A program made the translations under genes and the position numbers. A stretch of DNA of 63,953 nucleotides, counting the filler, from Rhabdomonas costata (lineage: Eukaryota): the NCBI GenBank assembly GCA_019059605.1. It is 35 parts of 35 records of this genome, joined end to end, with 100 filler letters (N's around TTAATTAATTAA, not from the genome) between each part and the next. Parts side by side here need not be neighbours in the genome. Positions count along the whole stretch, not along the records: positions 32,954 to 34,683 come from JAHMHO010009944.1; 34 more parts are not named here. One strand, 5' to 3'. The notes below the pieces were generated by a model. That model had not been told where the DNA came from, did no database searches, and was given only the letters and a program-made list of their open reading frames with translations. Within the stretch, counting starts at the first letter, position 1, and each line of letters opens with the position of its first letter. Positions 3,551 to 62,257 of this stretch are shown here, one piece after another.

Positions 3551-3663
3551 GTAAATTCGCACTTNNNNNNNNNNNNNNNNNNNNNNNNNNNNNNNNNNNN
3601 NNNNNNNNTTAATTAATTAANNNNNNNNNNNNNNNNNNNNNNNNNNNNNNNNNNNNNNNNNNN

Positions 3664-5309
3664 NGAGGGCCCACCGGACCAGAACCCCATCGCTTCGTCC
3701 TCCTCACCCTGACGGCAAGAAAGCAGACCTAAGACCTAGCAAAGAACAGGAGCCACCCCATAATTTTTTTGCTTATAGTTGGAGTGACGAAAAAGCACTG
3801 CGGTGAATTCCTCCATTTCACATAAACCATATAACGTGTGCACTGCGCGTTTATAGAACACAGCAGCACAAGTCGCCCGATCTGTATCAGGACATAAAAG
3901 CGTATCCCGAAACGTTGACATATATAAACTTCAGTCCATCCTTCCAAAGATGACAAACCCCTCGCAGGAAGGCGGCAATGTGTGTCTGAAGCAAGTCAGG
4001 TAACGCCAACAACCGACTCATCAACTCATCAACAAGAGTGCTTGGGAAGGTTGCGTGTCGCGGGAGCCGATCAAATGAGTTCAGTTCAGCACAGTTCAGT
4101 TCAGTTCTGGTCGGGAACCAACCTCCACCGATTATCGATGGGGACGGAGTTATTCATTCCAATTCGAAGGGAAACAAAAAGAAGGCTAACCATGGGCTGG
4201 CCAGAAGATGAGTCCTGGAAGTCCGTAAAGATGGAGTCGAACGTCTCGCAAAGCACCTGCCGAGAGGAGGAAAAGGAAAGACGACAAAAACAACACGCAA
4301 TGACATTGTTGTGATGCATTTCAGGCAAAAAAACGCATTTGCATGCATGAACACACGACCCTCAATTCAGGGAAAAACAAGTCAGAAAAAAGATACATAT
4401 TTTAGGAAACCAGATGTACTCAATTCTCCAAATGAGCACTTAAATGGCGCTCCTTCCTGAAGGAGAAAAGGCTTTGCTGGGGTTCAAAGCTTTCAATATG
4501 CACACACAGATGTACAGAATATCCACAGATGTCTATGGCATCACAGTATGACCCCGTCAGCATTAAGATGCGAAAAGAAAAAAGGGCGTCAACTCCCCCC
4601 CCCCGTGCTTCCCACACCTGAAGGATACTCAGTGTGGACAGCTTCGTCCAGACTTCGGTGGAGCGCTTCCCGGAGAGAAGCGATGAGAGGATGAAAAGAA
4701 CCTCGCTCTGGCAGCTCACAATGGACAGGGCGCGGGCTTCATCCCCTGCGCCAATCACCCCCATTATAGCATACGCAGCACGCCAGCACGCCACGGTTTG
4801 CTCCGTGTCACCTCAAAAGTAACAGGCATGAATAAGATCCCTGAAGAGTTCGAAAAACAAGCACAACCGATATGCAGTGAGTGATGTGCAGTTTTTTCGC
4901 CACCCTAAAACGACTGATTTAGTGCACACTTTTTAAGTTGTAACTTTTCGAGGTGACACGTATACTTAAGTGCTGAGCAGAGACAACAAAAACTACAATA
5001 CAATTGCAATGCGAATTAAAGGACGTGTGGATGGAGACAGATTCCAGCGAAATAGAGCGTCCCCACGCTCCAGCATGTGGATTCATCTCATTCAACGGCG
5101 AGATTTCACAGCAAAAGCAATTTTCGGGGGTCACGGAAACATGCCGGGCAAGACCTTGCACCCGGAAGGGCAGCCTTCGTGTGGATACTAGGCAGGACCC
5201 GATGCAATACTTGGCATGGTCACAGATAGGGGGGCAAGGCGTGGTACCGAAAATGCCCCCGTACAGGGCGTCGTCCAGCGTGGAGGAGAACCTCGCGTCA
5301 GATACGTAA
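3664..5309 (-). CDS. TRPC4AP/TRUSS-like protein, internal exons
   Basis: Exons 5309-5248, 4745-4618, 4256-4191 and ~3708-3664 are phase-compatible. SEVLFILSSLLSGKRSTEVWTKLSTLSILQ|VLCETFDSIF resembles the TRPC4AP segment EVLYVLCVLLMGRQR...LFDKLIW (recalled from memory). Confidence 0.6.
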
Positions 5310-16950: not shown

Positions 16951-18460
16951 TCCTGGCGAAGTTATCGTTGATCACCGCTATGGCCTGAAGCGCAGTCCTG
17001 ACTTTCAGTGGCGCAATGAATGATCTTTATGGTATGTCACCCCGGGGTACGCAAGGCACTTGCCCTCAGAAAGCTCAAAAGGCTCAGGAAGCCTGGTCCG
17101 GCTTGAATGGTAGAAGAATTGGAGGGGAGCACGCATGCTGTTTCGCTTTGCTTTCAGAGCCTTTTGCACATTTCCTGTCGTGATCGGACTTCTTCTTTGG
17201 CTCCGGATGCAGCCACCTCCATTGGGCTGTAGTGCTCATTGATTCTTATTATAGTAACGCGGTGATTTTCCCTTGTCCCCTTTCCGTGAAGCGGGATAAA
17301 ACGCTGCTCCTCGCAGACTTGCGGCGGTGACTCCGAAGCTGTATGTTGAGAAAGCAGAGTCTGGCGCAAGAGACTCGACGCTGAAACAAAACAAGGCAGC
17401 AAGCGGGGTTTTGATATTCGCCACCATCGATTTCTTGCTGCCCTGTGTACTTCGATCTGTCCTGTACATGGGGTTTTGTATTGTTCCTTCATTACCGGCT
17501 GGTATTTATTGTCCGGGTCTTCAGACGTTTGCATTTACGAGAGCGAAGAGCGCAAGCCCCGAGTCTGTTTAGCTGGTGCTCGAATTCAAGCCATGCTTAT
17601 CGAAGCGAAACGACGTGGTAGAGAATGGGAGTATCTGCAAATGGCGCCTGCTTGTAGGCAGGTTGGCTGCTCCGAGAAAAGCAAACTTTGTTTTGTAACT
17701 CATGTTGGAATGTTGCACTCCGAAGAAGTGAACCACGGGCTGCAGAGAAGAATGCATTGATGCACTACAATGCATTGATGAGTTTCACAGAGTGGATAGA
17801 TTTTCTTCGATGGGTTCCTGTCTCTTCTCAAAGTAAGGCCGGTCTGAGGCTTGCACTGTATAAACCACTTACCCACTATCAGCACCTCATGCAATTGAAT
17901 GCGCGCCCGAGTGGAAACGGAGTAAGACGCCACCCCAATGATGGATTCGCATTTTTGTCTTTTGGTTTCTATTTTTAGCTTTTGGGTTAAATTAACCTAG
18001 TTCTGTTGCCCTGAATCTCTTGTTGATGCTGCTCCGTTTATGGGCTCATTAACCCTTTTTCAAAAGCTGCTTGCGTTTCCAGTCTTTCCCTCCTCCTTGG
18101 TGTAAATGTAAACACTGCTGCCACAATGAGTTTGCAACCGCCCCCTCGAGGCCCGGCTGCTTCTTCAGCGATCTTCTCGTCTGATGAATCCTGCTGGACC
18201 CACCAAAANNNNNNNNNNNNNNNNNNNNNNNNNNNNNNNNNNNNNNNNNNNNTTAATTAATTAANNNNNNNNNNNNNNNNNNNNNNNNNNNNNNNNNNNN
18301 NNNNNNNNGGTTTGGTGTGGTGAAAGCAAGGGTAACCTTCACAAAGAAATCTAGGGAAATTTCGGTTCCTTTCGAGGGAGGTGGTGTATGAACCGTAAAG
18401 CACAGGCAAACCTCCCCGTTTCACACACCCTTTCGCGCCAAACGTTCGCTTCTCTTTGAG

Positions 18461-19594
18461 GTGATTGGGGAGACGGCGGTGGAGCTGGACTGCCTGTTTT
18501 CCTCGCTCCGCTCTCGCGAGACGAACGCGGGGAACTTCATTGCAGACATCATCCGGATAAGTAGTAAGGCCGACATCGCCCTGCTGAACAGCGGCACCCT
18601 GCGCACCGACGCTGTTGTTCCTGTTGGTGAGCTCACTCTCAAGGTGTGAGTGTGCGTTGACTTTTACCTTTTCACTTTGACTTCCTGTCTCAAAACTCCA
18701 GCAGTGGCGTTCCAAGGAACTAGACGTCAAACCAGAGGCTGCCAGACCTTGCCCGACACTGGGAGCCATTGGCCATTGCGTGTTGCAATGCACAAACACA
18801 ACAGATAAAATTGCGACTTCTGTTCAAAACATGATGAGCCCCCACTCGCCCAAATTCGCCATTGTTGTTGCCGCCGGAAGCTATGCAGTTCCAAATCCAA
18901 ACATGAAGAGAAGAAAGAGAGTCCTCGTTTTCTAGGATATATCAAGTTGGTCGAATCCTTAAAAGGCGTGAGCTCTCTTGGGAGCGTAAAATTCAACCTG
19001 ACTCCTCTGGTTACTTGCGCCCCACACCCCTTTGTACTTCCCCTTTCCCCAGTAATGTGCCCAACCTCCCCCTCCCCCTGAAAGTCAGAGGATGAGGGGT
19101 TCTGCAGGACTTGTTCACTCTGCTGCCGATGCTGGACCTAGTTGTGGTGCTCGGGTTGACCGCATGCGAGCTCCTACAGGCGCTGGAGAACGGGGTCTCG
19201 CAGTGCCCCCGGCTCGATGGCAGGTGCGCACCCCTTTGGTGGAGATGACCTTTGCCAGCGCGCTGCCGCAGAAACACGTGCGGTATTGGTTCCGGATGCG
19301 AGACGCAAGACGACAGGTGAAAGGGGAGGAGATGATTGTAAGCGCATTCTTTATTTTCAAGGCGATTGGAGGTCGGTGGGTGGTTTTTCTCCCGACAGAT
19401 TTCTTCAGGTTTCCGGGGTGAAGTTTGAGTACGACCCCACGCAGCCTGCGGGCCAGAGGGTGATCCGGGAGAGCGTCCGCCTGACTGGGGACGGGGATGA
19501 GCAGGCGCTGGATCCCGCCACCACCTACCGTGTTGTGGTGAAGGAGTACATGGCCTCGGGAAAGGACGGCTTCGACTGCCTCGCCAATGCCAAG
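18461..19594 (+). CDS. 5'-nucleotidase (calcineurin-like/UshA family), C-terminal domain exons
   Basis: Exons 18461-18643, 19108-19223 and 19399-19594 give RSRETNAGNFIAD...ADIALLNSGTLR...DLFTLLP...LLQALENGVS..RLDGRFLQVSGVKFEYDP...YRVVVKEYMASGKDGF. Confidence 0.93.
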
Positions 19595-19670
19595 GAATGG
19601 AATGATGAATGACTCACGGCCCCCTAAACTCACACGCGTGCACAGTTCACACGGCAGCATACACAAATGT

Positions 19671-19671
<1 letters not shown>

Positions 19672-19720
<49 letters not shown>
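19672..19720. repeat. (CA)n microsatellite
   Basis: Directly visible. Confidence 0.95.
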
Positions 19721-19723
<3 letters not shown>

Positions 19724-21026
19724 TCTAGTCTTCCCAACAACAAAACAAAGGGGTACAGCAAAAGACGGACTCGTCAGGTGCACACACACACACACGTTGT
19801 TTTGCTGACATTCAGTTGGAAAGCAATTTCTGATGTTTTTCCTTCGAAACCTTCTGTTTCTCGGCGCACGCGCACACTTCCTGCAACAGCTTCCATCTGG
19901 CCTGGCACAGGTCTCTCAGAGGGCGAGGCATCCGGGGGGCTTCTGGTGTGGCTGTGCGTTGTGGTAGGTTTTGGTGGACGAGCTCCCCGCGATTCCGACG
20001 ATGGTCCGGGGCTTCCTGAGAGTAATCTACAACCTTTCAGGTGCTTNNNNNNNNNNNNNNNNNNNNNNNNNNNNNNNNNNNNNNNNNNNNTTAATTAATT
20101 AANNNNNNNNNNNNNNNNNNNNNNNNNNNNNNNNNNNNNNNNNNNNGTGGGGTTGTGGTCAGGGTGAGGCGTAGCATGCGTCGCCTTCTCCAGAGTGCAC
20201 CCAAGGCCCTTTGCTCCTGGAATCCCCCTCGCTCGAGCTGTCGTCGTGCTCCAGCTCGGGCCTCCCTATACCTACATGGGTGGCAGACGCTTCACCAGGA
20301 GGCTGCAACAGATGATCGGGTTCCTCCACCCCTCGAAGGCGGTGGGTGCCAGCCTGGGTGTGCTTTCGACCCGGAGCAGGGGGCGCACCTGACAAATACA
20401 ATTCTAGTAATTGGAAAGCTGCTGTGCAACATCAAGATCTTTTTCCTCACGAGAAGCAAACTTGGAACTAGATGAGCCAGGAGCGAGTTGCAATAAAGCA
20501 TCAGGCCCAGCGGTCTTTCAACTCAACTCATGTCACGGAAGGAGTGGGGCACGCAATTTAAATGGTTCAAGACAATTCTAGCACTCTGGCAACATGCGAG
20601 GAGGGGAGAGTAAGATTTTGCCATAAAAAAGCAGCTATTAAACCCAGAGAAGAGGCGCTGTGGGGAGGAGGTGAGTAGAGTTCTGCAAGCTGCATCGGTT
20701 TCCTGAATTGCTAGAGTAGTGTGTGAGCGCGTGTCATGGAGATCATTTTAGAAGAAAAAAAGGTGCCCGCTGCCGAAGGTCACGACGTGCTCCGGGGCGA
20801 GTATGTGACCAGATGAGTACAAGGGCCGATAATATAAGATGCAGTGAACCCTGCTGCTCTGAATGGAATGCTGGGATCACCCGGCACCAGCGACCCATCA
20901 AAAGAGCAAGTCAGCAGACCTGGGTATTCTTTTTTGAGTGCGCTCTGAAGGTTTAAGGAGGCACTAACTAATTGAAGGGGGTGTAGGAAAATTGGGACTA
21001 GAAATGTGTATGGGTTGTATGCCACC

Positions 21027-21976: not shown

Positions 21977-22591
21977 TGTGGAATAATTTCTCACATCAAA
22001 CCCACATTTGCGTGCTTGCAAGAGCTTGATCAGTGCACACACAGGAGTTGTGGGCGGGATATGCTCGTCGAACTTGCCTCACTCACTTGCATGTGGCCGA
22101 CCTTTGGCCCAGCTATTGCATTTCAAGGCGGCAATTATGGCGTTGGGGTGCTCTCCAGAGAACCACCCCTATCTGCGAAGCAAGTGACACTGCCTGGAGC
22201 AAAGGAGCTCCGAACCGCGCTAATTGTTGAGTTTCCTTGGATTTTCATTGTTTGCACCCATTTTTCGCTGGTTGAATCTGACCGACTACAGTCTGTGGAG
22301 ATTTTAGACGGAGTGGCAGCTGTCAGCGGGTGCAGTGGCAAGCCCTTTGTTTTGGCAGGTGACTTAAATGACATTCCCACCTCAGCAACGCTGCGGGCTT
22401 TTGAAGAGCGAGGTTGGACCAGGTTGTCTGGTTCGCAGCCCACGTTTCCAGCAGACTTCCCAAAACAGTGCATTGACTATGTTTTATGCAAAGGAATTCT
22501 AGGTCGTCCCTGGAACAGCCAATTGATTATGGAGCCTCACGCTTCCGACCACTTGCCCGTTCTTGTGGAACTGTCTGAGGCGCGCCGCTGA
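21977..22591 (+). CDS. Endonuclease/exonuclease/phosphatase (EEP) family metal-dependent hydrolase, bacterial type, intronless, 5'-truncated
   Basis: Open from the contig edge. Contains LQELD, GGNYGVGVLS, CTHFSL, LAGDLND, PTFPA...IDYV and ASDHLPV, and ends at TGA. Confidence 0.93.
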   Translation, partial: CGIISHIKPTFACLQELDQCTHRSCGRDMLVELASLTCMWPTFGPAIAFQGGNYGVGVLSREPPLSAKQVTLPGAKELRTALIVEFPWIFIVCTHFSLVESDRLQSVEILDGVAAVSGCSGKPFVLAGDLNDIPTSATLRAFEERGWTRLSGSQPTFPADFPKQCIDYVLCKGILGRPWNSQLIMEPHASDHLPVLVELSEARR

Positions 22592-24482: not shown

Positions 24483-25233
24483 TTGGGAGTGCTGCGCACG
24501 ATGGCTTTGGTGCTGAAGAGTGGCATGCGAGCGGAGTTGCTGCCTCATGCCGGAACGATTGCCAACATGGTGCTGCAGCAGTACGCTAAGCACAGGTTGT
24601 GTCACCCCCCCCCCCCCGTGGAGGGCCGACCAGGGAGGGAGAAAGAGGGTGTTTTTGGAGTTTGTGGGTTCGTTCCAGGGTTTAGTTGATATTTCGACCT
24701 GATGCGGGAACTGGGTTCGTGCGTCCGGGAAAGATTTTGAATCCTCATTTTCAGCTTTTTCAGACGTGCGATTGGTCCGAGGACTTGTCTTTGCATGTCA
24801 TCCCTTGAGGATGAACTGAACCTCTTCAATGGAAAGCCCATTTTTGCAGTCGAAATTCGAATCTCTGATGTACCTCACTGAGAATCGAAAGTAGCGTTAT
24901 GGACTGTATCGATATCGTCGATCACGCTGAGGTATCACGAAAGGAAACAGGTTGCATGGCTGTGGGCTTTGCCTCCCCGAGGTCCCCGAGAACCTCTCAC
25001 CTTGTACTCCATGCCTCAGGACGGGCACAATCACCCATTGCAAACTGCTGCTGAAGGTGGGTCAGCGGGTTGCTCTGGTGTTCCTGCCCAACCGGGTGGC
25101 GACGTGGCGGTACCAGAGGGGCCACCGCAGCCTGGTCTCCAACCTGGCCGCCCTGGGCCAAAGAAGTGCGGCCGCGGCCCAGCATGGGGTGACCACTGCG
25201 GCAGGGCAGGAGCAGTCCCCTGGAGAGGCGGAG
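24483..25233 (+). CDS. TBCD: Tubulin-specific chaperone D, internal exons
   Basis: Exons 24483-24595 and 25020-25233 give LGVLRTMALVLKSGMRAELLPHA...KLLLKVGQRVALVFLPNRVATWRYQRGHRSLVSNL, containing the TBCD signature WRYQRGxRSL. Confidence 0.9.
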
Positions 25234-25636
25234 GTTTGGTGCCTGCCCAACTTGGAGTGTATTAGTAGGGGGGAGGGGTAGATGGATGTAAGATTCAAAA
25301 CCTGCATCGCCCGGATTTACACTTACCAAGGGAAGGTGTATGCGTTGATACACGTCTTCTTCTACATGTCTTATACTATGCTTGTTGTAGCGTTTTGGGT
25401 TAGAGGTACCACATTGTTCTTGATACGGCATATTCGACATTTCGACCTTGGGCCGGAACGCTGCGCTCGGCGTCACAAGATCCTAGTAAGCACGCAAAAG
25501 GACGTCCTCATTGGGAAGGTGCTCACCCCACACCCCNNNNNNNNNNNNNNNNNNNNNNNNNNNNNNNNNNNNNNNNNNNNTTAATTAATTAANNNNNNNN
25601 NNNNNNNNNNNNNNNNNNNNNNNNNNNNNNNNNNNN

Positions 25637-29293: not shown

Positions 29294-29437
29294 CGCAAGC
29301 GCTCCCTTCGAGAACGAGCACGGCTGTACAAAGTGGCAGAGATTGCCAAGGTAAAAAAGATACCAACTGGGCTGAGAAGGTCCCCCCACATGAGAACTAC
29401 GCGCACTTGCTTCAGCCAAAGGCATTCCGGAGCCCGC
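29294..29437. repeat. 144-bp near-perfect direct repeat, truncated by the contig edge; partner at 30570-30713
   Basis: The two copies differ at 2 positions. Confidence 0.95.
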
Positions 29438-30687
29438 TGGTCACGTGGTCCAGATCAATGGAGGCGACAGGATAAACCTCCTCAACGGTAATGTACGACG
29501 CCCTTGAGGGAGGGGGCAGTATGTACTAGTGCAATCAGCTTCAACCCTTGCAGCACTCAGTTTGGAGGTCGGAAGATAAAGCGTGGCAAAGACAGAATTG
29601 CAGCGAGGCAAGAATATAGGGATGACGAGGTGGTGCGGGGAGGGATGGGGGAAGCCACCAGAGATGAAGGGTGTGAAGATGTTTGCGGACGTCACGAGGC
29701 AAAGCGAAAAGGGGTTATTGGTGGGAGGGTGGGGACAATACTTTGGCCGGCATGCCGGCTCGTGGGAAGTCCCCAGAAAGGCATGAACGCGAGAGGGGGT
29801 TGGGGAAAAAGTGAGGAAGGAGGTATCTTACATGACGGTGCAAAAAACAGCGGTGGAAAAGATAGGAGGAAGGTATCAACCACAAGAGCAAGGGAGCAGC
29901 ACAGCCTACAAGGTGAAGAGCACGGGTCCATACCAGCACGACAACAAAGCAAGAAAGCTGAACAGCAAAAAGACAAAAAGGTTGAAGGCAGGGTAAGAAT
30001 ATGCCAAGGCGAAGGAGATGAACTGACAACACCATATTCTACACCGAAAGGTAATGTGAACACCAACCAACTCCCTCCGGTTTAACTGGGACTGCTTCTT
30101 CGCGTGAGGAGAGACATCATCCCACAACACCCCCCCCCCTCCGTCCGGCTACGGTCGCAGGGTCACAATCCTCTCTAATGAGGGCACAAACACTAAAGTT
30201 GGAAACCTCTACAGGGGAGAAAACGAAAACCAAGCCAGAAAAGCGCCCCCCATAAAGTGGGAAATGCGCCAAGGCCATGTCGGTCACCCGTGAGGAAAAA
30301 GTACGATGCAACTCGAGAAGTGTGTGTGTGTGTGTGTGCGAGTACTCGTGTAGGTGTCAACGCGGGCAAGTTCCACTCTGTCATGTATTATCGCAGCATG
30401 CGTAATCGCGCGAAGAGAGGACCCTCAAATGAAATATAGACACCCCAAAAGGCTGCTCTTGTTTTTTTTAGCATACCCGTGAAACGGGAATCTGGGGGAT
30501 GGGGTGCGGAGCGGAGAGAAGACAGAACATCGGCTTGCTGACGCTACAACAAGAAGTGCTGCACCGAATCGCAAGCGCTCCCCTCGAGAACGAGCACGGC
30601 TGTACAAAGTGGCAGAGATTGCCAAGGTAAAAAAGATACCAACTGGGCTGAGAAGGTCCCCCCACATGAGAACTACGCGCACTTGCT

Positions 30688-30780
30688 TCAGCCAAATGCA
30701 TTCCGGAGCCCGCGGGCCAGATCAGCCGTGATGTCAACCTCGGCCACCCTCCTCCGCCGCCGCAAGGTGGTATGTGGGTC
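30688..30780 (-). CDS. Probable terminal exon ending ...GLRNAFG*
   Basis: TTTTGCAG acceptor followed by a 93-nt open exon, DPHTTLRRRRRVAEVDITADLARGLRNAFG-TGA. Confidence 0.5.
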   Translation of the reverse strand, partial: DPHTTLRRRRRVAEVDITADLARGLRNAFG

Positions 30781-31215
30781 CTGCAAAACAAAAACACGTA
30801 CATACTGACGGACGGGGGGAGGGGGGGCGCATGTCACTTTGAAAAACCCATCAGGTCAGCCACGAGACATAGAGCAGAAAAAGTTCCAATAGGGTGTATG
30901 TGGATATGATGCAGATTCACGCGCCCCTTACCCAAAGCCCCCAAACCAAAGGCGGATGCACTATGCGCAGGTACAAGCGCTTCGTAATTTGAAACGTGCT
31001 CATGTATTGAACTGAAAACTCTANNNNNNNNNNNNNNNNNNNNNNNNNNNNNNNNNNNNNNNNNNNNTTAATTAATTAANNNNNNNNNNNNNNNNNNNNN
31101 NNNNNNNNNNNNNNNNNNNNNNNTTGTGTTGTTGTGCTCTGTCTTGCCTTCCGGGTTGCTAGAAAAAAGGTTTCCGCAAGGAAACTCTTATTTTGACTCT
31201 GAAACCTTTTTCCAG

Positions 31216-32457
31216 GCTTGGATTGGCTCTCTTTGGCCTGGGCTCGGCGTTCTTCGCAGTTAAGTCGGCCGTTTTCATTGGTATGGCTTCCGCATTGCTC
31301 TTTTTTTGTTTCGCTACTTGTTTTAGCTTCATCATCCCAGTTAGGTTTTGTGATTCTGTTTGGTTTTGCTGCTGTTCTCAGTGGACGCGGGTGAAAGTGC
31401 GGTGGTGTTCGACCGCTTTCGTGGGGTACTTCCTCATCACTATGGCGAAGGCATTAACTTCGTCATTCCCATTCTTCAAACCCCTTACACCTACGACATC
31501 CGAATTCGGCCACGAGAGATTTCTACCAGGAGCGGAACCAAAGGTTTTCAACTGTCAGCTCGCGTTAGAGAGGTTTGCCATGTTTCTTTCTTTCTGGGAA
31601 TACTTTTCTGTCCGAAACTCTTCACACAGATCAGCAGCAAGTCAACATAAAGCTCCGAGTGCTCCACCGTCCAATTGTGGAAAAGCTGCCTTGGCTCTTC
31701 GAAACATACGGTGTGCACGTCCCTCATGGAAAACGCTGAAAGTTTTTTGCTTTGGTCTTCCTTTCTTTGGTTTTCTGTTGTGCTGTCAAGGGATGGATTA
31801 TGACGAGAGGATTCTGCCTTCGATTGGAAACGAAATTCTCAAGGCGGTTGTGGTATGCTTTTTTTGAATGGATTGGACTGTTGTATTTCTGAACATTTTG
31901 GTTTGATTGGTTGATCTTTTGTTATGGTTGTTTGGCAATGGAAAACTTCGTATTTATGTTCTGGAAACGGTATCGTCGGTACTCTTTTTTTCTGAGAATT
32001 CCATGGTGAACAGAAAACCCGATCACAAGCCCACCCCGCGCACCTTCTTCCTGGGAGGCTCCTACGCAAGGAATCACGAACGCAGACGCTGTGCATCGGG
32101 GGAGGGGGGCGGTATGGGTCAGATGCATTTGGTGGCTTCTTTTTTGACGCGTCCAACTCATCATTTCATCATCAGTATCGAACTCGTCGATACTCGTCCA
32201 TCGATGAAATTTCTGAGGTACGTGCATTTGTTATTGCGCAGGCTCAGTTTAATGCGGAGGAGCTCATCACAAAGCGAGAGCTAGTTTCGCTGAAGATCCG
32301 ACAGATTATGGAAGTCCGCGCACGAACGGACTATGGCATGGTTTTGGACGATATTTCGCTGATGGATGTCAAGTTCAGCCAGGAGTTCATGCACGCCGTG
32401 GAGATGAAGCAGGTCGCTCAGCAAGAAGCGGAGCGGTACAAGTACGTCGTGGACAAG
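31216..32457 (+). CDS. PHB1: Prohibitin (SPFH domain), PHB1-type, partial
   Basis: Exons 31216-31280, 31382-31543, 31630-31710, 31791-31852 and 32242-32457 are all GT-AG and in phase: VDAGESAVVFDRFRGV...SGTKDQQQVNIKLRVLHRP...[32 protein letters not shown]...KQVAQQEAER. Confidence 0.96.
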
Positions 32458-32653
32458 GTTCGTGGTTTCAGTATGGTTCCTTCGCTTGCATATTTTTTTG
32501 GGAGACACTGTTCATTGCTCACTTTATTTTTGTGAACACAACACCTACCTCTTCCTTCCTACCTCTTTCCTTATTATTGTTGCTTATTCCGTATTATGTT
32601 TCCACTCAAAGACTTTTTACTTGTGCCTCACAGCCTTTATATCGCGTCCCACC

Positions 32654-32687
32654 TTACATTACATTACATTACATTACATTACATTAC
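32654..32687. repeat. (TTACA)n pentamer tandem repeat
   Basis: About 7 units, directly visible. Confidence 0.95.
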
Positions 32688-33601
32688 GTAAGATGAGGCT
32701 GGTACCCCCGGGGGGTCTCTAGGTGTCTTGGTCTCGACACCGCAGGTAGGTGGGGTTAGGTGCCCTTGCGTCCCGAAGTCAGGCTGGGTCCTGGGGGTAG
32801 GGTCAGAGGGTCCCGAGGTGTCTGGCATCGGGTGTAGGTGCACCCAACCCCACNNNNNNNNNNNNNNNNNNNNNNNNNNNNNNNNNNNNNNNNNNNNTTA
32901 ATTAATTAANNNNNNNNNNNNNNNNNNNNNNNNNNNNNNNNNNNNNNNNNNNNTGTTGTGGGTGATTGACTTGCACAAAAGGACTTTTCTCCAAGCGCAT
33001 GCGTCTCAAAGTCTGCGCTTTTCTGAACGGCAATGGGATGTGCATGAGCATGTGCATGTGTAAGTGGAACGCACAATAGAAAGTCATTCTGCAGTGCATG
33101 CGTGTGAGATCGCTGATTTGTGAGACCGATGATTTTCCGTGGTCTTTTTCCCGCGGTAGGACTAGAACAGGGTGCTGGGAGTGTAGTGCACGCACGTCAG
33201 CTATCAGGTTTTCGGTGCGGGCTCCAGCTCATTAACTCCAACGGCAGTGGGTATCTGTGACGTCTGCACCTGTGTGTCGCTGTGCTACTTCTAGTTACTT
33301 GCACAGCATGAACCTGTCAACCTGCTGAAGCTGTGCATTATTTGGTTGTTGTGGTGACTTTTCCATCACTGATCTTGAAAGTGTTCGTGCGCAGGTATTT
33401 TTTCTGAATACTACAGTGGTCGCACAGAAAAGTTAGCACTACATCGCGTGGGCACCAGAAATTTCGTCCTTGCTCACACCTCTCCGGTTACTAAGATATC
33501 CCTACCATCCTCGATACAATCTATGATGGGTCCAAGCTCCTCCATGCTGGGCTAAAAGAGGAGCAGTTCGCGCGTGCGCGCGCGCGCACACACACACACA
33601 C

Positions 33602-34631
33602 CGCCTGGCCAAAGTAATCCGCCTTGTGAGTCTCGGTGTTAAACTCCACATCGGGCAAGCCCGTGTGCATCCCCATCCGCACACGCAGCCTGAGAGAAGC
33701 ATCCCGTCGAAGGCGCCTCTCATCGGATTGGGAGATAGCAGATTACCTCGGCTCGTCGGCTTTAAAAAAAACTTTACCTCGCTTTGCATGCCGACTGCGT
33801 TTGGACAGCTCATGTATGTGACCGTGTACTCACGTGCAGTGCCGAACGGTTCGTTAAAAGCAACCCCGGCTGGTACAACTGGTACAAGAAGCAGAAATAC
33901 CCACTGAAAAGCACTGTGATGCCGTCCGGGGCGAGAACCCTCGCACAGGAGGGGAACGCCAGCAGCAGAGGGTCCCACGGCGCCGCGGTGAGCTCCCGCT
34001 GGGCGTCCACAGCGAAGTCCACCGCGTCGTCGGCCCACCAGAAGGCGATCATGAACGCATCCCCTGTTGGAGCACGCATTTGGGGGAAGGTCGGGGGTGT
34101 GTTGGAAGGATGCTGTCAACACCGAACCCTAAAACCCGACAAACCCTGCAGTTGATCCAAGTCCATCTGAACGACATAATGCTGTGCTCATAGTGATGGA
34201 TCATATGCAGGAAAACGAGCCTGAATCTTCTTTAACATAAAAAAATTTACAGGGCTTTGCGGCTTCTGTGCTTGTGGTCCCTGCCGCTTTTCGGGGTTTT
34301 TTAGGGCATTGCTGCACAAAATCGCTGCGCGCCAGTCATCGCGCCCTAGGCCGGTATCAACATGTATCCTGCATGTCAAGAAAAATCAAACAAAGGGAAA
34401 AGAGAGGGGCGTGTATGTGTGCGCGGCAGGGGGGCGCGGTGAAGGCATTCCTTCGGTCTTCACCTCGTAGCCGCGGTGTGCGGCGATCTGGTGCCGGAGG
34501 ATGCTGTTGTGTAGCTCCAGCGCGGCCTTCATCACCCCCACAGGCATCCGGTCCCACAGGGCAGTGCTGTCCTGCACGTCGGTGAACATAAGGGTAACCT
34601 CCCCGCGAGGCGCGGCGGCGAGGACTCGGCT
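33602..34631 (-). CDS. Class III adenylate cyclase catalytic domain (receptor-type), partial
   Basis: Exons ~34631-34451, 34063-33901 and 33689-33602 give EVTLMFTDVQDSTALW...GYEVKTEG|DAFMIAF...LFSG|LRVRMGMHTG...ADYFGQA. Confidence 0.95.
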
Positions 34632-35019
34632 CCTAAGCGGCAGCCGCCGAACAGTCCGTCGACCCCAACCTCCACACCCCCACNNNNNNNNNNNNNNNNN
34701 NNNNNNNNNNNNNNNNNNNNNNNNNNNTTAATTAATTAANNNNNNNNNNNNNNNNNNNNNNNNNNNNNNNNNNNNNNNNNNNNAAGGGTGGAGGGGCAAG
34801 AGAACCCTGTCCGCTGCTATATGCTCAAATATTTCGAAAAAGGGACAGCCATGCCTACACCACATACTCTGGACGGGATTCCGGTGGTTTCCAGTAGTTC
34901 CCTATGAATTCCAACTGAAAGTGCTTTATATTAGCCGCCTCTGAATCGCGGTTGACACTTGATCGATACCTTTGAGGTTGCACGTTTTCTTTCACGGGGG
35001 AGAGAGGAAGGGAAAGGAC

Positions 35020-55731: not shown

Positions 55732-57373
55732 GCCGCTGTTCTTACGTGCCACTGGTGGCTGATGGTGCAACTTTTGAAAAGGGGAACTTTGCTCCTCGTT
55801 CAGGACTCAGAGCCTCTCCTCAGCGTCGCTTCTTCTTTTTCTTTCCATTGCGCTGCGCGATTTGCCGTTCCTCGCCGGATGCTCTTAGGATTTCGCTAGT
55901 TGTACTGTGTGCGTGCGTGCTGATGCTATTTTGTGGTGGCTGTAGAACGGTGCACACCTTCGAGAAGAACCTTCCTGCCACGGTTGAATCAACCCCCTTC
56001 AGTATGAGAAAATCTCCAGATGAATTGTCCAACATGACACTTCTTGGAGTGCGCCAAGCCAATCATGTGAGATCCATTCATCTCATGCTTTTATACTGGT
56101 GCAGGCACCCGCGGGGTACAAGCAGCGATTGCGGCGCTTTTTGCACATTTGAATTCCGCTTTGCTGTGATACGATACCCGAAAAGAGCAGCCCCCCCCCC
56201 CGGAGTTCGTTGGTGCAACACTTGTGGGGACATCCGACAGGTTGTTCATTGTGTATTGCTGCGCTTGTAAGTGTTCTCATGTCTTCTCTTCAGTTAGTTC
56301 TTTTGCTCAGCCCTGGTTTCTTTTAACGACTCAAAAATGCCATTGCACAAATGATTCTGCACAATTATTCCGCAGCTCCCTGCCACCGGACACTGACTCC
56401 GAGTTTGAGTCTAGCTGTGTTGTTGATGGTTCTGGTGGGCGTGCTGCCAACTTCCTGGGCTGCCCCAGAACAACGCTCCTCCCAACATGTAGCTGAGCCC
56501 TTCACCTCCCTCCTACGTAAGGTGCACAGCCCCAAAGTCATGCTAATGATACTGCGGGAGCTCGATATCATCTTTTTCCGTCAAGCCCTTGAGCACCGCT
56601 GGGCCAACCTCACCTCTGACCTTGTGCGGGCCCTTCGNNNNNNNNNNNNNNNNNNNNNNNNNNNNNNNNNNNNNNNNNNNNTTAATTAATTAANNNNNNN
56701 NNNNNNNNNNNNNNNNNNNNNNNNNNNNNNNNNNNNNTTTTTGTCGTCCCTGGGAGTCTTCCTGCCACCCCTTCTAGCTTCGTTCGCAGGCCTACAAAAT
56801 AATACCCCGAAGAGAGGCATGCCCTTTTCCGTTCAAAGCCCTTCACGTATGGTCCCCGCGGAGATGAACCGGTGAAGATCGGATACCAGAGTGGGGTCCA
56901 CACTTGAAGGGACCAGGAAATCTGAGTTTTACGCGCAACATCACAGGCTGACTAGCCATGTTACAACATTTTGACTGGGACCTTTCAACTCAAAAATGCA
57001 ATTTGGGGTGACAAAACAAAGAGTTAGCTTTTATCCATTCAGTTCATTTCTGTATGCTCGCACACCGCAAGGGATCTCAGAATATCAACTGCTGAATTCT
57101 GTCCGTACGGCGCTTCCGTGTTCGATCAGTTTTTTGTACAGCAAGTTGCGCAGAAGCAGTCCCCCCCCCTTTTTTTTTTGAATATGTGCACATTCCTACC
57201 TTACTTGGGTTGCCCCACAGTTGCATTGAATGGAACTACAAGAGGGCGGCACGGCCACGCGGAAAGGGGACAGGGGAAAGGGGATTACGGCCAAGCAGGG
57301 AAGAAGAACTAACCTTTTCTGTGCACTCGGGTTTTGGAATGAACGAAGAACGGGAAGGGAAAAGCATTCGGAC

Positions 57374-57625
57374 CGGTTTGAAGCGAATGATCCGGCCGTC
57401 CCCAAGGCCTGTGTAAATCAAGCCATTCTTGTCCACAGCGAACCCCTCCGGACCGTGCACCTGTCCCTCGAAGAGGTGCTCTGCCGCGCCCAGGCGGTGA
57501 TTGGGAACCAGCTGGGGCAGGGGCCCCCCATACTCGAACAACGCAGGCTCCAGCTGCGGCCCCACAGCCAGCCTCCACCCCAGAAGGGCGGCCAGCACGG
57601 CGAAGATCCAGACCACCCACGACAT
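57374..57625 (-). CDS. Strictosidine synthase-like / APMAP-like protein, first exon
   Basis: Signal anchor MSWVVWIFAVLAALLGW, then N.RL..AE.LFEGQVHGPEGFAVDKNGLIYTGLGDGRIIRF. Confidence 0.9.
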
Positions 57626-58566
57626 TCCGAGAAGCGAAAAAAAAAACGGCTGCGGGAGAAGTAAGTGGGCAACCAGAAGGAACACACCACCCAGACTCGA
57701 GGTGCAGTGTGAAGGACCCGCACACCACAAGAAGAAAGGGAAGGGGGGCCCCACAAGTTTTCAGGCTTTCACCATTGCTGCGTTTGTAAGGAGTCACGAT
57801 TTTGCTCTCTGTCGATCCAAGGAGCCGGCATACAACAAACAACTTGCTATTCTTAAACAGGGCATATTCCAATCCAGACATGTCCTCCCGTCTGACAGTT
57901 GCATCAGGGAATCAGGAAAGAAAATCAACAAAAGGCCAAAAGGTTTGCATGGAGTGCCCCGTCAGTATTCCAGAACAGGGCAGCTCGTAAAAAAACATAC
58001 AAAAAATTGGATAACGAGAAAAAAGTTGGTCATGCAGCGCTTCGAAAGAAACGCTACTACTGAGCAGAGGTGCCCTCTTCCGGCTCCGGTGGCGTCGAGG
58101 GCGGAGGAGGGGGTAGCGTGTCTCTCGGGGGCCGCCTGTGCCGACCCCGCGCACGCCTGCCACCGTCCCCCTTGCACTGATGCCGCAACCCCTGCGCACA
58201 TACGTGCAAAGTGGTGAAACGTGTGGTGTGCCCCAACACAACAGAGATATACTATCGCCTATCGTTCATAGAAATCAAGAAGAGGGGAATCACAACTCTG
58301 GTAACCGTTACCCCCCCCCCAAATAAAAAACAATTGGGCCAGCACGAAATATCTCGCCGCACTCCTGACCGTTGACCATGGTTGCAAGAGAGGCTGACAA
58401 GAAGGGGAAACCCCAAAACACCGTCGATTGGATCCATGTGGACTTTAAATAGTGTTGTCGTACACANNNNNNNNNNNNNNNNNNNNNNNNNNNNNNNNNN
58501 NNNNNNNNNNTTAATTAATTAANNNNNNNNNNNNNNNNNNNNNNNNNNNNNNNNNNNNNNNNNNNN

Positions 58567-61960: not shown

Positions 61961-62257
61961 AGTTACTCGAGAGAGAAGTGCTCCACTGTGTCTTCTGCAC
62001 AAAAAGTGTGCTTGTTTGGGTGAGCGCGTTTCCAAACAGCAACCTAACCTGAAATGCATGTGTATGCGCAGCCAGACTGCTGTATGCGCAGCCAAACTGC
62101 TTAAAACGGTTTCGAACACAAACCNNNNNNNNNNNNNNNNNNNNNNNNNNNNNNNNNNNNNNNNNNNNTTAATTAATTAANNNNNNNNNNNNNNNNNNNN
62201 NNNNNNNNNNNNNNNNNNNNNNNNTTGGGTTTCCACGGAGGGGGAAGGGACGCCCTT

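Follow-up and report, generated by a model that had tools for sequence, protein, structure and literature searches.

The locus explored in this study raises the question of how a euglenid gene is spliced when its catalytic motif is interrupted by an intron that appears to begin with neither GT nor GC. The gene in question, a putative class III adenylate/guanylate cyclase, lies on the minus strand of a short contig (record JAHMHO010009944.1) in the draft genome of Rhabdomonas costata (assembly GCA_019059605.1), within a window of 63,953 nucleotides (nt), linkers included, which is the whole stretch of DNA analysed here. We propose that positions 34450 to 34064 could constitute a conventional, spliceosome-type intron with GA–AG ends, a reading based on sequence comparison whose chances we judge to be about even. 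The window consists of 35 contigs of ~1730 base pairs (bp), separated by 34 identical 100-bp linkers (44 N + TTAATTAATTAA + 44 N). Since the contigs are merely joined by these linkers, genes standing side by side in the window are not physically linked and any feature spanning a linker is an artefact.

Homology to known cyclases provides the frame in which the intron can be placed. Exon 1 matches the Pfam family PF00211 at profile positions 3–56 with 29.7 bits (cut-off 21.9), and exon 3 matches positions 93–140 with 17.0 bits, which alone is below this cut-off. Among solved structures, the closest are those of T. brucei GRESAG4.3/4.1 (E 3e-07; 1fx4/1fx2), to which exon 1 aligns as far as YEVKT at residue 59, and a secondary alignment to 1fx2 continues with DSFMIASK from residue 62, so that the spacing from T to D amounts to only two residues in this structure. 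The initial annotation had claimed a contiguous motif EVKTxGDxF for class III cyclases, which holds in all nine homologues inspected, with YEVKTEGD[AS]FM in six and YEVKT[AV]GDSFM in the others. In the spliced model, FTDVQDST, EVKTE and GDAFM are present and aligned with the same residues of the homologue P0205. The Asp of FTD in exon 1 and the Asp of GDAF in exon 2 are the two metal-binding Asp residues, and exon 1 contributes the Lys of EVKT as well. Class III cyclases further carry a downstream Asn/Arg pair that acts in the transition state, and the part of the domain holding this pair would fall beyond exon 3. Taken together, these alignments point to the catalytic domain of a class III adenylate/guanylate cyclase.

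On the minus strand, exon 1 reads ...GGC TAC GAG GTG AAG ACC GAA G up to 34451 and is followed by GAATGCCTTC... from 34450, and at the other end ...GTGCTCCAACAG runs up to 34064 and is followed by GG GAT GCG TTC ATG from 34063. When 34450–34064 is removed, the last G of exon 1 and the GG that opens exon 2 complete a Gly codon, and EVKTEGDAFM becomes contiguous; the boundaries and the length of 387 nt put forward in the initial annotation proved to be exact. Because AG|G is present at both ends, the junction can slide over four registers that yield an identical messenger RNA (mRNA), namely AG–AC, GG–CA, GA–AG and AA–GG, and none of the four is GT–AG, GC–AG or AT–AC. The earlier statement that the intron must start with GA therefore stands insofar as GA–AG is the sole register in which an AG acceptor is kept, and has to be relaxed insofar as the junction itself slides.

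Canonical solutions were enumerated around both ends, with all 28 GT or GC dinucleotides within 60 nt upstream or 150 nt downstream of 34451 as candidate donors and all 12 AG dinucleotides within 200 nt upstream or 60 nt downstream of 34063 as candidate acceptors, and the candidates were scored as three-exon models against 155 fetched homologues. Ten GT/GC–AG pairs turned out to be in frame and free of stops, and every one of them loses or adds residues at the motif and scores worse than the GA–AG model, so that canonical GT/GC–AG splicing was rejected for this position. The GA–AG model scores highest, with 152 bits; its alignment to P0205 shows 58% identity and 2 gaps over 135 columns, neither of them at a junction. 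The best canonical alternative, a GC–AG pair at 34436/34063 (donor GCCCCC), reaches 146 bits with 7 gaps and separates G from D in the motif by five extra residues. Two earlier remarks on individual donors have to be corrected in this context. The upstream donor GAG|GTG had been expected to delete VKTE; with the same acceptor it loses 13 nt, leading to a frameshift and a stop, and only the acceptor at 34112 keeps it in frame, with 16 unrelated residues standing in place of VKTE. Likewise, the next downstream GT, at 34392, had been expected to insert about 20 residues, and 34112 is again the one acceptor that leaves its frame intact. Homology forces a donor other than GT or GC.

The resulting three-exon model (Table 1) comprises 140 residues, with no stop and no frameshift within the exons. 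GC content is 0.60–0.68 in the exons (0.66 in exon 1), with 0.84 at third codon positions (GC3), and 0.51 in both introns. Intron 1 contains stops in all three frames, and its retention would end the protein 21 codons past exon 1. By GC, GC3 and stops, the exons look coding and intron 1 does not. The translation of exon 1 ends with ...PRGEVTLMFTDVQDSTALWDRMPVGVMKAALELHNSILRHQIAAHRGYEVKTE, and its frame stays open upstream to the end of the contig. A canonical GT–AG intron of the same gene lies 163 nt downstream of the GA–AG intron, and its junction yields LFSG-LRVRMG, the same as in the homologues. At the far end of the model, a (GT)n/(GC)n microsatellite at 33560–33601 (minus strand) begins precisely at the intron 3 donor of the cyclase gene, so that the end of exon 3 is ambiguous within the GT run; the contig yielded no additional exon past exon 3, and one minor tandem repeat is located elsewhere on it. 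A search of the whole window by tblastn with seven homologues matched only the cyclase contig and returned no other cyclase copy. Comparison of intron 1 with the window by blastn gave just two chance-level matches, of 13 and 23 nt, and hence no sign of a repeat or mobile element there.

Table 1. Positions of the cyclase gene model, of the further introns defined in the window and of the linkers.
Feature	Positions	Strand	Remarks
Cyclase contig	32954-34683		1730 bp; bounded by linkers; the gene fragment leaves the contig at its upstream end at least
Exon 1, cyclase catalytic domain	34451-34622	-	...PRGEVTLMFTDVQDSTALWD...GYEVKTE + first base of the Gly codon
Donor site AAG|GAATGC	34445-34453	-	G at -1, G at +1, A (not T) at +2, ATGC at +3 to +6
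Intron 1 (proposed GA...AG)	34064-34450	-	387 nt; register slides from -2 to +1
3' end of intron 1	34064-34105	-	pyrimidine tract, then CAACAG|G
Exon 2	33901-34063	-	GG GAT GCG... = G-DAFMIAFWWADDAVDF...ITVLFSG
Intron 2, canonical	33690-33900	-	211 nt; GG|GTATTT...CTTCTCTCAG|G
Exon 3	33602-33689	-	LRVRMGMHTGLPDVEFNTETHKADYFGQA, then GTGTGTG donor; LRVRMGMHTG...DYFGQ
Prohibitin introns, GT-AG	31281-31381, 31544-31629, 31711-31790, 31853-32241	+	fifth donor at 32458
5'-Nucleotidase fragment, introns, GT-AG	18644-19107, 19224-19398	+	from continuity of the Pfam profile and reading frames, not from complementary DNA (cDNA)
Linkers	1734-1833, 3565-3664, ... 62125-62224

For comparison with local splice sites, seven complete canonical introns could be defined in the window, and a transcript-derived protein confirms four of them. 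The exons of the prohibitin gene on contig 31124–32853 (plus strand) are 100% identical to P0009 (eukprot RCo014258) over residues 27–200; its exon 32242–32457 is likewise 100% identical to RCo014258, with Eutreptiella gymnastica (71%) following as the second named relative. The prefix RCo denotes Rhabdomonas costata proteins, which were predicted from the transcriptome (PMC8219788). The host is accordingly R. costata or a strain almost identical to it, and a dinoflagellate origin was rejected, since the named proteins closest to this exon come from euglenids. The fourth prohibitin intron is 389 nt long and carries the donor GTATGC; a (TTACA)n microsatellite at 32655–32690 (plus strand) follows the last prohibitin exon. 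In a second gene fragment, at 18309–20046 (plus strand), a 5'-nucleotidase C-terminal domain (PF02872) extends over three exons with two canonical introns and covers profile positions 1–59 and 96–157. The cyclase homologue P0006 combines a PF02872 domain and a cyclase domain in one protein, and this fragment might therefore belong to a receptor-type cyclase.

Nine local GT donors were available from these genes (GTATGG, GTTTTC, GTGTGC, GTATGC, GTTCGT, GTATTT, GTGTGT, GTGTGA and GTGCGC). They carry G at −1 in 9/9 cases and G at +5 in 7/9, and the GA donor AAG|GAATGC has both. It had been described in the initial annotation as the common local donor GTATGC with T>A at +2; the match to GTATGC at all positions except +2 is correct, and the word common is too strong, given that exact GTATGC is found in one of the nine donors and GT[AG]TG in five. 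At the other end, the last 40 nt before the AG of intron 1 contain 65% pyrimidine and 53% C and are followed by CAACAG|G, and a C-rich tract is reported to be typical of conventional Euglena gracilis introns (PMC11170887). Both ends of intron 1 look conventional apart from position +2.

Since the host is a euglenid, a nonconventional intron has to be treated as the central alternative and not as a side remark. In euglenid nonconventional introns, positions +4 to +6 pair with −8 to −6, mostly as CAG/CTG (PMC4770533), and the signature has been formulated as 5'-N3-CDG...CH'G-N5-6|R (PMC12501133). In Euglena gracilis, these introns show CCAGG at +3 to +7 and CCTG at −9 to −6, with terminal pairing mostly between −10 and −2 kcal/mol, and a terminal pairing energy of zero is found in ~3% of them versus 35% of GT–AG introns (PMC11170887). 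In intron 1, positions +4 to +6 and −8 to −6 face each other in combinations of the TGC/TCC type, which form only 0–1 Watson–Crick pairs of the possible three in all four registers. Positions 4 to 6 read AAT, ATG, TGC and GCC in the four registers and nowhere CDG, so that agreement with the signature is limited to the purine that opens the exon. When the intron ends were folded as a chimera after PMC11170887 (10 nt, seven U and 10 nt), energies of 0.0 kcal/mol were obtained for registers 0 and +1, −1.7 kcal/mol for register −1 and −3.4 kcal/mol for register −2. Duplexes of the first and last 20 and 40 nt reached −7.1 and −9.6 kcal/mol, which 31% and 30% of 500 shuffles equalled or bettered, and the rank of the intron 1 end duplex versus shuffles is similar to that of six canonical controls. 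The whole intron has a minimum free energy at z = −2.2 relative to shuffles, with the first 8 and the last 7 nt unpaired. For R. costata, seven nonconventional introns have been accepted, all of which open with GC, precede an exon whose first base is G and possess long near-terminal stems (PMC8219788 Table S6); no register of intron 1 starts with GC or ends with CC, and of the pattern |GC...CC|G with stems only the exon G is shared. The initial annotation had found by eye no end-pairing of the euglenid nonconventional kind, a judgement that folding and shuffle tests uphold. On pairing, signature, terminal structure and species-specific ends, a nonconventional intron was consequently rejected as the explanation.

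A minor-spliceosome intron was considered as well. U12-type introns have the donor consensus RTATCCTT (GTATCCTTT) and a branch site TCCTTAAC located 10–15 nt from the 3' end. The donor GAATGCCTT matches GTATCCTTT at 6/9 positions, differing from it at +2, +5 and +7, and the region 10–15 nt before the 3' terminus of intron 1 contains no branch site resembling TCCTTAAC; the U12-type reading was rejected on these two grounds. In diplonemids, only U2-type small nuclear RNAs (snRNAs) have been found (PMC12621601). A search with Rfam over the whole window at gathering thresholds returned no match, and thus no snRNA or spliced-leader (SL) RNA.

Published data for the same species contain further candidates for GA–AG introns. 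In six R. costata genes, all 29 complete introns are GT/AG, and an aligner additionally predicted 1164 noncanonical introns, with read support on 105 contigs; 26 read-supported noncanonical cases were annotated, seven of which were accepted as nonconventional (PMC8219788). We counted terminal dinucleotides as whole words in one xlsx supplement (file 1) of this paper, covering both orientations and seven noncanonical classes. GTAG + CTAC occur 4549 + 4912 times (= 9461) and GCAG + CTGC 308 + 326 times (= 634). GAAG + CTTC follow with 90 + 95 (= 185, over three sheets), which makes GA–AG the commonest of the seven noncanonical classes counted, the others lying at 82–139 occurrences: GGAG + CTCC 54 + 37, ATAG + CTAT 63 + 19, TTAG + CTAA 52 + 40, GTGG + CCAC 68 + 71, CGAG + CTCG 60 + 22 and GTAT + ATAC 37 + 54. 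Since noncanonical rows repeat in Tables S2 and S3 (and a few in S5), the 185 words correspond to ~90 rows of Table S2, i.e. ~0.8% of ~11,259 transcript-mapped rows and about twice the number for GG–AG, AT–AG, TT–AG or CG–AG. Within Table S5, GA–AG accounts for 5 of 26 rows (four GAAG, one CTTC) and is the biggest single class. Section 7 of the main text of PMC8219788 contains no discussion of GA–AG rows, and the term GA-AG is absent from a paper on diplonemid splice sites (PMC12621601). A full-text search of the literature, judged by titles and the beginnings of abstracts and not covering the spelling 'GA/AG', yielded no description of a euglenid GA–AG intron.

It should be noted that several points weigh against the GA–AG reading. 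The junction is slidable, so that GA–AG is a choice of register, and its position is derived from protein similarity. The donor comparison draws on a small sample (n = 9). The supplementary counts refer to rows instead of unique introns and to seven noncanonical classes only, and the aligner behind the tables favours near-canonical registers. Furthermore, the authors of PMC8219788 retained seven of 26 cases after manual inspection; an initial GA is found in none of the seven, and GA–AG was omitted without a stated reason. No transcript-derived protein of the cyclase gene was found among proteins of 101–2000 amino acids, where the best match has 65% identity, and none among proteins of 42–135 amino acids; among representatives clustered at 50% identity, the best stretch reaches 71% over a 57-residue query. 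R. costata transcriptome proteins are present in the database searched, P0009 being an example. This absence is weak evidence, because the transcriptome is 75% BUSCO-complete and 43.5% of its reads map to the genome (PMC8219788). Finally, the draft genome was obtained from amplified DNA at 10–20x coverage (PMC8219788), and a base error at 34449 or a dead allele is possible.

These points lead to explanations other than a functional GA–AG intron. It is unlikely, in our view, that the GA is real and the copy unproductive, i.e. a pseudogene, a disabled allele or a poorly spliced paralogue in which T was recently changed to A at +2 of GTATGC. The missing transcript-derived protein would agree with such a copy, as would a donor one base away from a local donor type and the multi-copy nature of cyclase domains in relatives, with at least three per protein in P0002. 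However, all three exons on the contig are intact and retain their high GC3, neither the metal-binding Asp residues nor the Lys of EVKT has been lost, the incomplete transcriptome makes absence from it a weak argument, and GA–AG rows recur in the transcript-mapped data of the species. Rather more doubtful is an error of assembly, amplification or sequencing at 34449, in which case the true donor would be GT and the intron an ordinary GT–AG intron. A single base separates the donor from GTATGC, contigs of ~1.7 kilobases (kb) mark a very fragmented, low-coverage assembly, and whole-genome amplification preceded sequencing of the draft. Against this, consensus errors are rare per site and one would be needed at exactly this position, the prohibitin exons agree perfectly with their transcript-derived protein, and the three cyclase exons show neither a frameshift nor a stop. 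In the published tables, moreover, GA–AG is about twice as frequent as GG–AG, AT–AG, TT–AG or CG–AG, which random errors would not produce.

Least probable among the explanations weighed here is a euglenid nonconventional or 'intermediate' intron, excised by a non-spliceosomal route, whose GA–AG ends would be a coincidence of register. Besides the euglenid host, it is favoured by borders that are noncanonical and can slide along a short direct repeat and by a purine at the start (PMC12501133; PMC4770533), by the chimera energy of register −2, which falls within the range reported for E. gracilis (PMC11170887), and by the 38.8% of E. agilis nonconventional introns that are without the defined signature (PMC12501133). 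It is opposed by the absence of both the +4 to +6/−8 to −6 pairing and the CDG signature in all four registers, by end pairing no better than in shuffles or canonical controls, by the exon G as the only feature in common with the seven R. costata examples, and by the rarity of such introns in R. costata, where the introns of the six genes inspected are GT/AG throughout (PMC8219788).

We therefore return to a conventional GA–AG intron as the reading we favour, at the even chances stated at the outset. Splicing at AAG|GAAUGC...CAACAG|G would restore the catalytic strand EVKTEGDAFM, and the junction would be used in RNA, with the intron being removed by the spliceosome. Recognition could proceed via the remaining contacts of the 5' splice site (G at −1, G at +1 and positions +3 to +6) together with a strong 3' end. 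More tentatively, and with clearly less confidence than for the single intron, we consider that euglenids may have a third class of introns, conventional-looking GA–AG introns that would make up ~1% of R. costata introns and be handled by either the ordinary spliceosome or a variant U1. If this were true, part of the euglenid 'nonconventional' introns would be spliceosomal.

Current sorting of euglenid introns distinguishes spliceosomal GT/GC–AG introns from nonconventional ones and puts every intron other than GT/GC–AG into the latter group. The presence of a conventional-looking GA–AG intron within a catalytic motif, where its junction can hardly be disputed, suggests that too many introns are counted as nonconventional under this scheme and that the euglenid spliceosome tolerates A at +2, which would slightly revise intron classification in euglenids. 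In practical terms, gene finders limited to GT/GC–AG would split the cyclase at its active site.

Several other fragments were noted in the window. An uninterrupted frame of 204 residues at 21977–22588 (plus strand), running from the start of its contig, matches Exo_endo_phos (PF03372, E 2.5e-20) and could represent a retroelement endonuclease or a cellular nuclease. On contig 29294–31023 (plus strand), ~29300–29490 and ~30480–30730 encode a near-identical peptide (...RERARLYKVAEIAKVKKIPTGLRRSPHMRTTRTCFSQ...) and form a direct repeat ~1.2 kb apart. ARM repeats like those of tubulin-specific chaperone D were found at 24931–25278 (plus strand; PF25767, E 9e-11), and a strictosidine synthase-like N-terminal domain at 57239–57760 (minus strand; PF20067, E 6e-13).

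The proposed cyclase intron can be compared with several known systems. GA–AG introns are a rare known variant of introns of the major spliceosome and are spliced efficiently in human FGFR genes (PMC7072748). Like these major (U2-type) GA–AG introns, the cyclase intron is otherwise conventional and occurs in a gene that also has GT–AG introns. In the copepod Eurytemora affinis and the tunicate Oikopleura dioica, GA is preceded by AG and followed by A (AG|GAA) (PMC7072748), the same context as observed here. In contrast to FGFR, no canonical GT is located six nt upstream in a usable frame at the cyclase intron (PMC7072748). From these systems it differs by its euglenid host and by a junction placed by protein similarity. 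Dinoflagellates show large fractions of GC|GA–AG introns (PMC7789003), whereas GA–AG in R. costata, at ~0.8% of rows, is far lower, and the dinoflagellate comparison made in the initial annotation is best read as an analogy. With euglenid nonconventional introns, the cyclase intron shares the lineage, the slidable noncanonical borders, the short direct repeat and a purine at both the 5' end and the exon start, but it is without CAG/CTG-type pairing, a terminal stem and GC...CC|G ends. It resembles the 'intermediate' euglenid introns in having one canonical border (AG) and one noncanonical border; these, however, are defined by a stable structure at their ends (PMC4770533), which the ends of the cyclase intron do not form.

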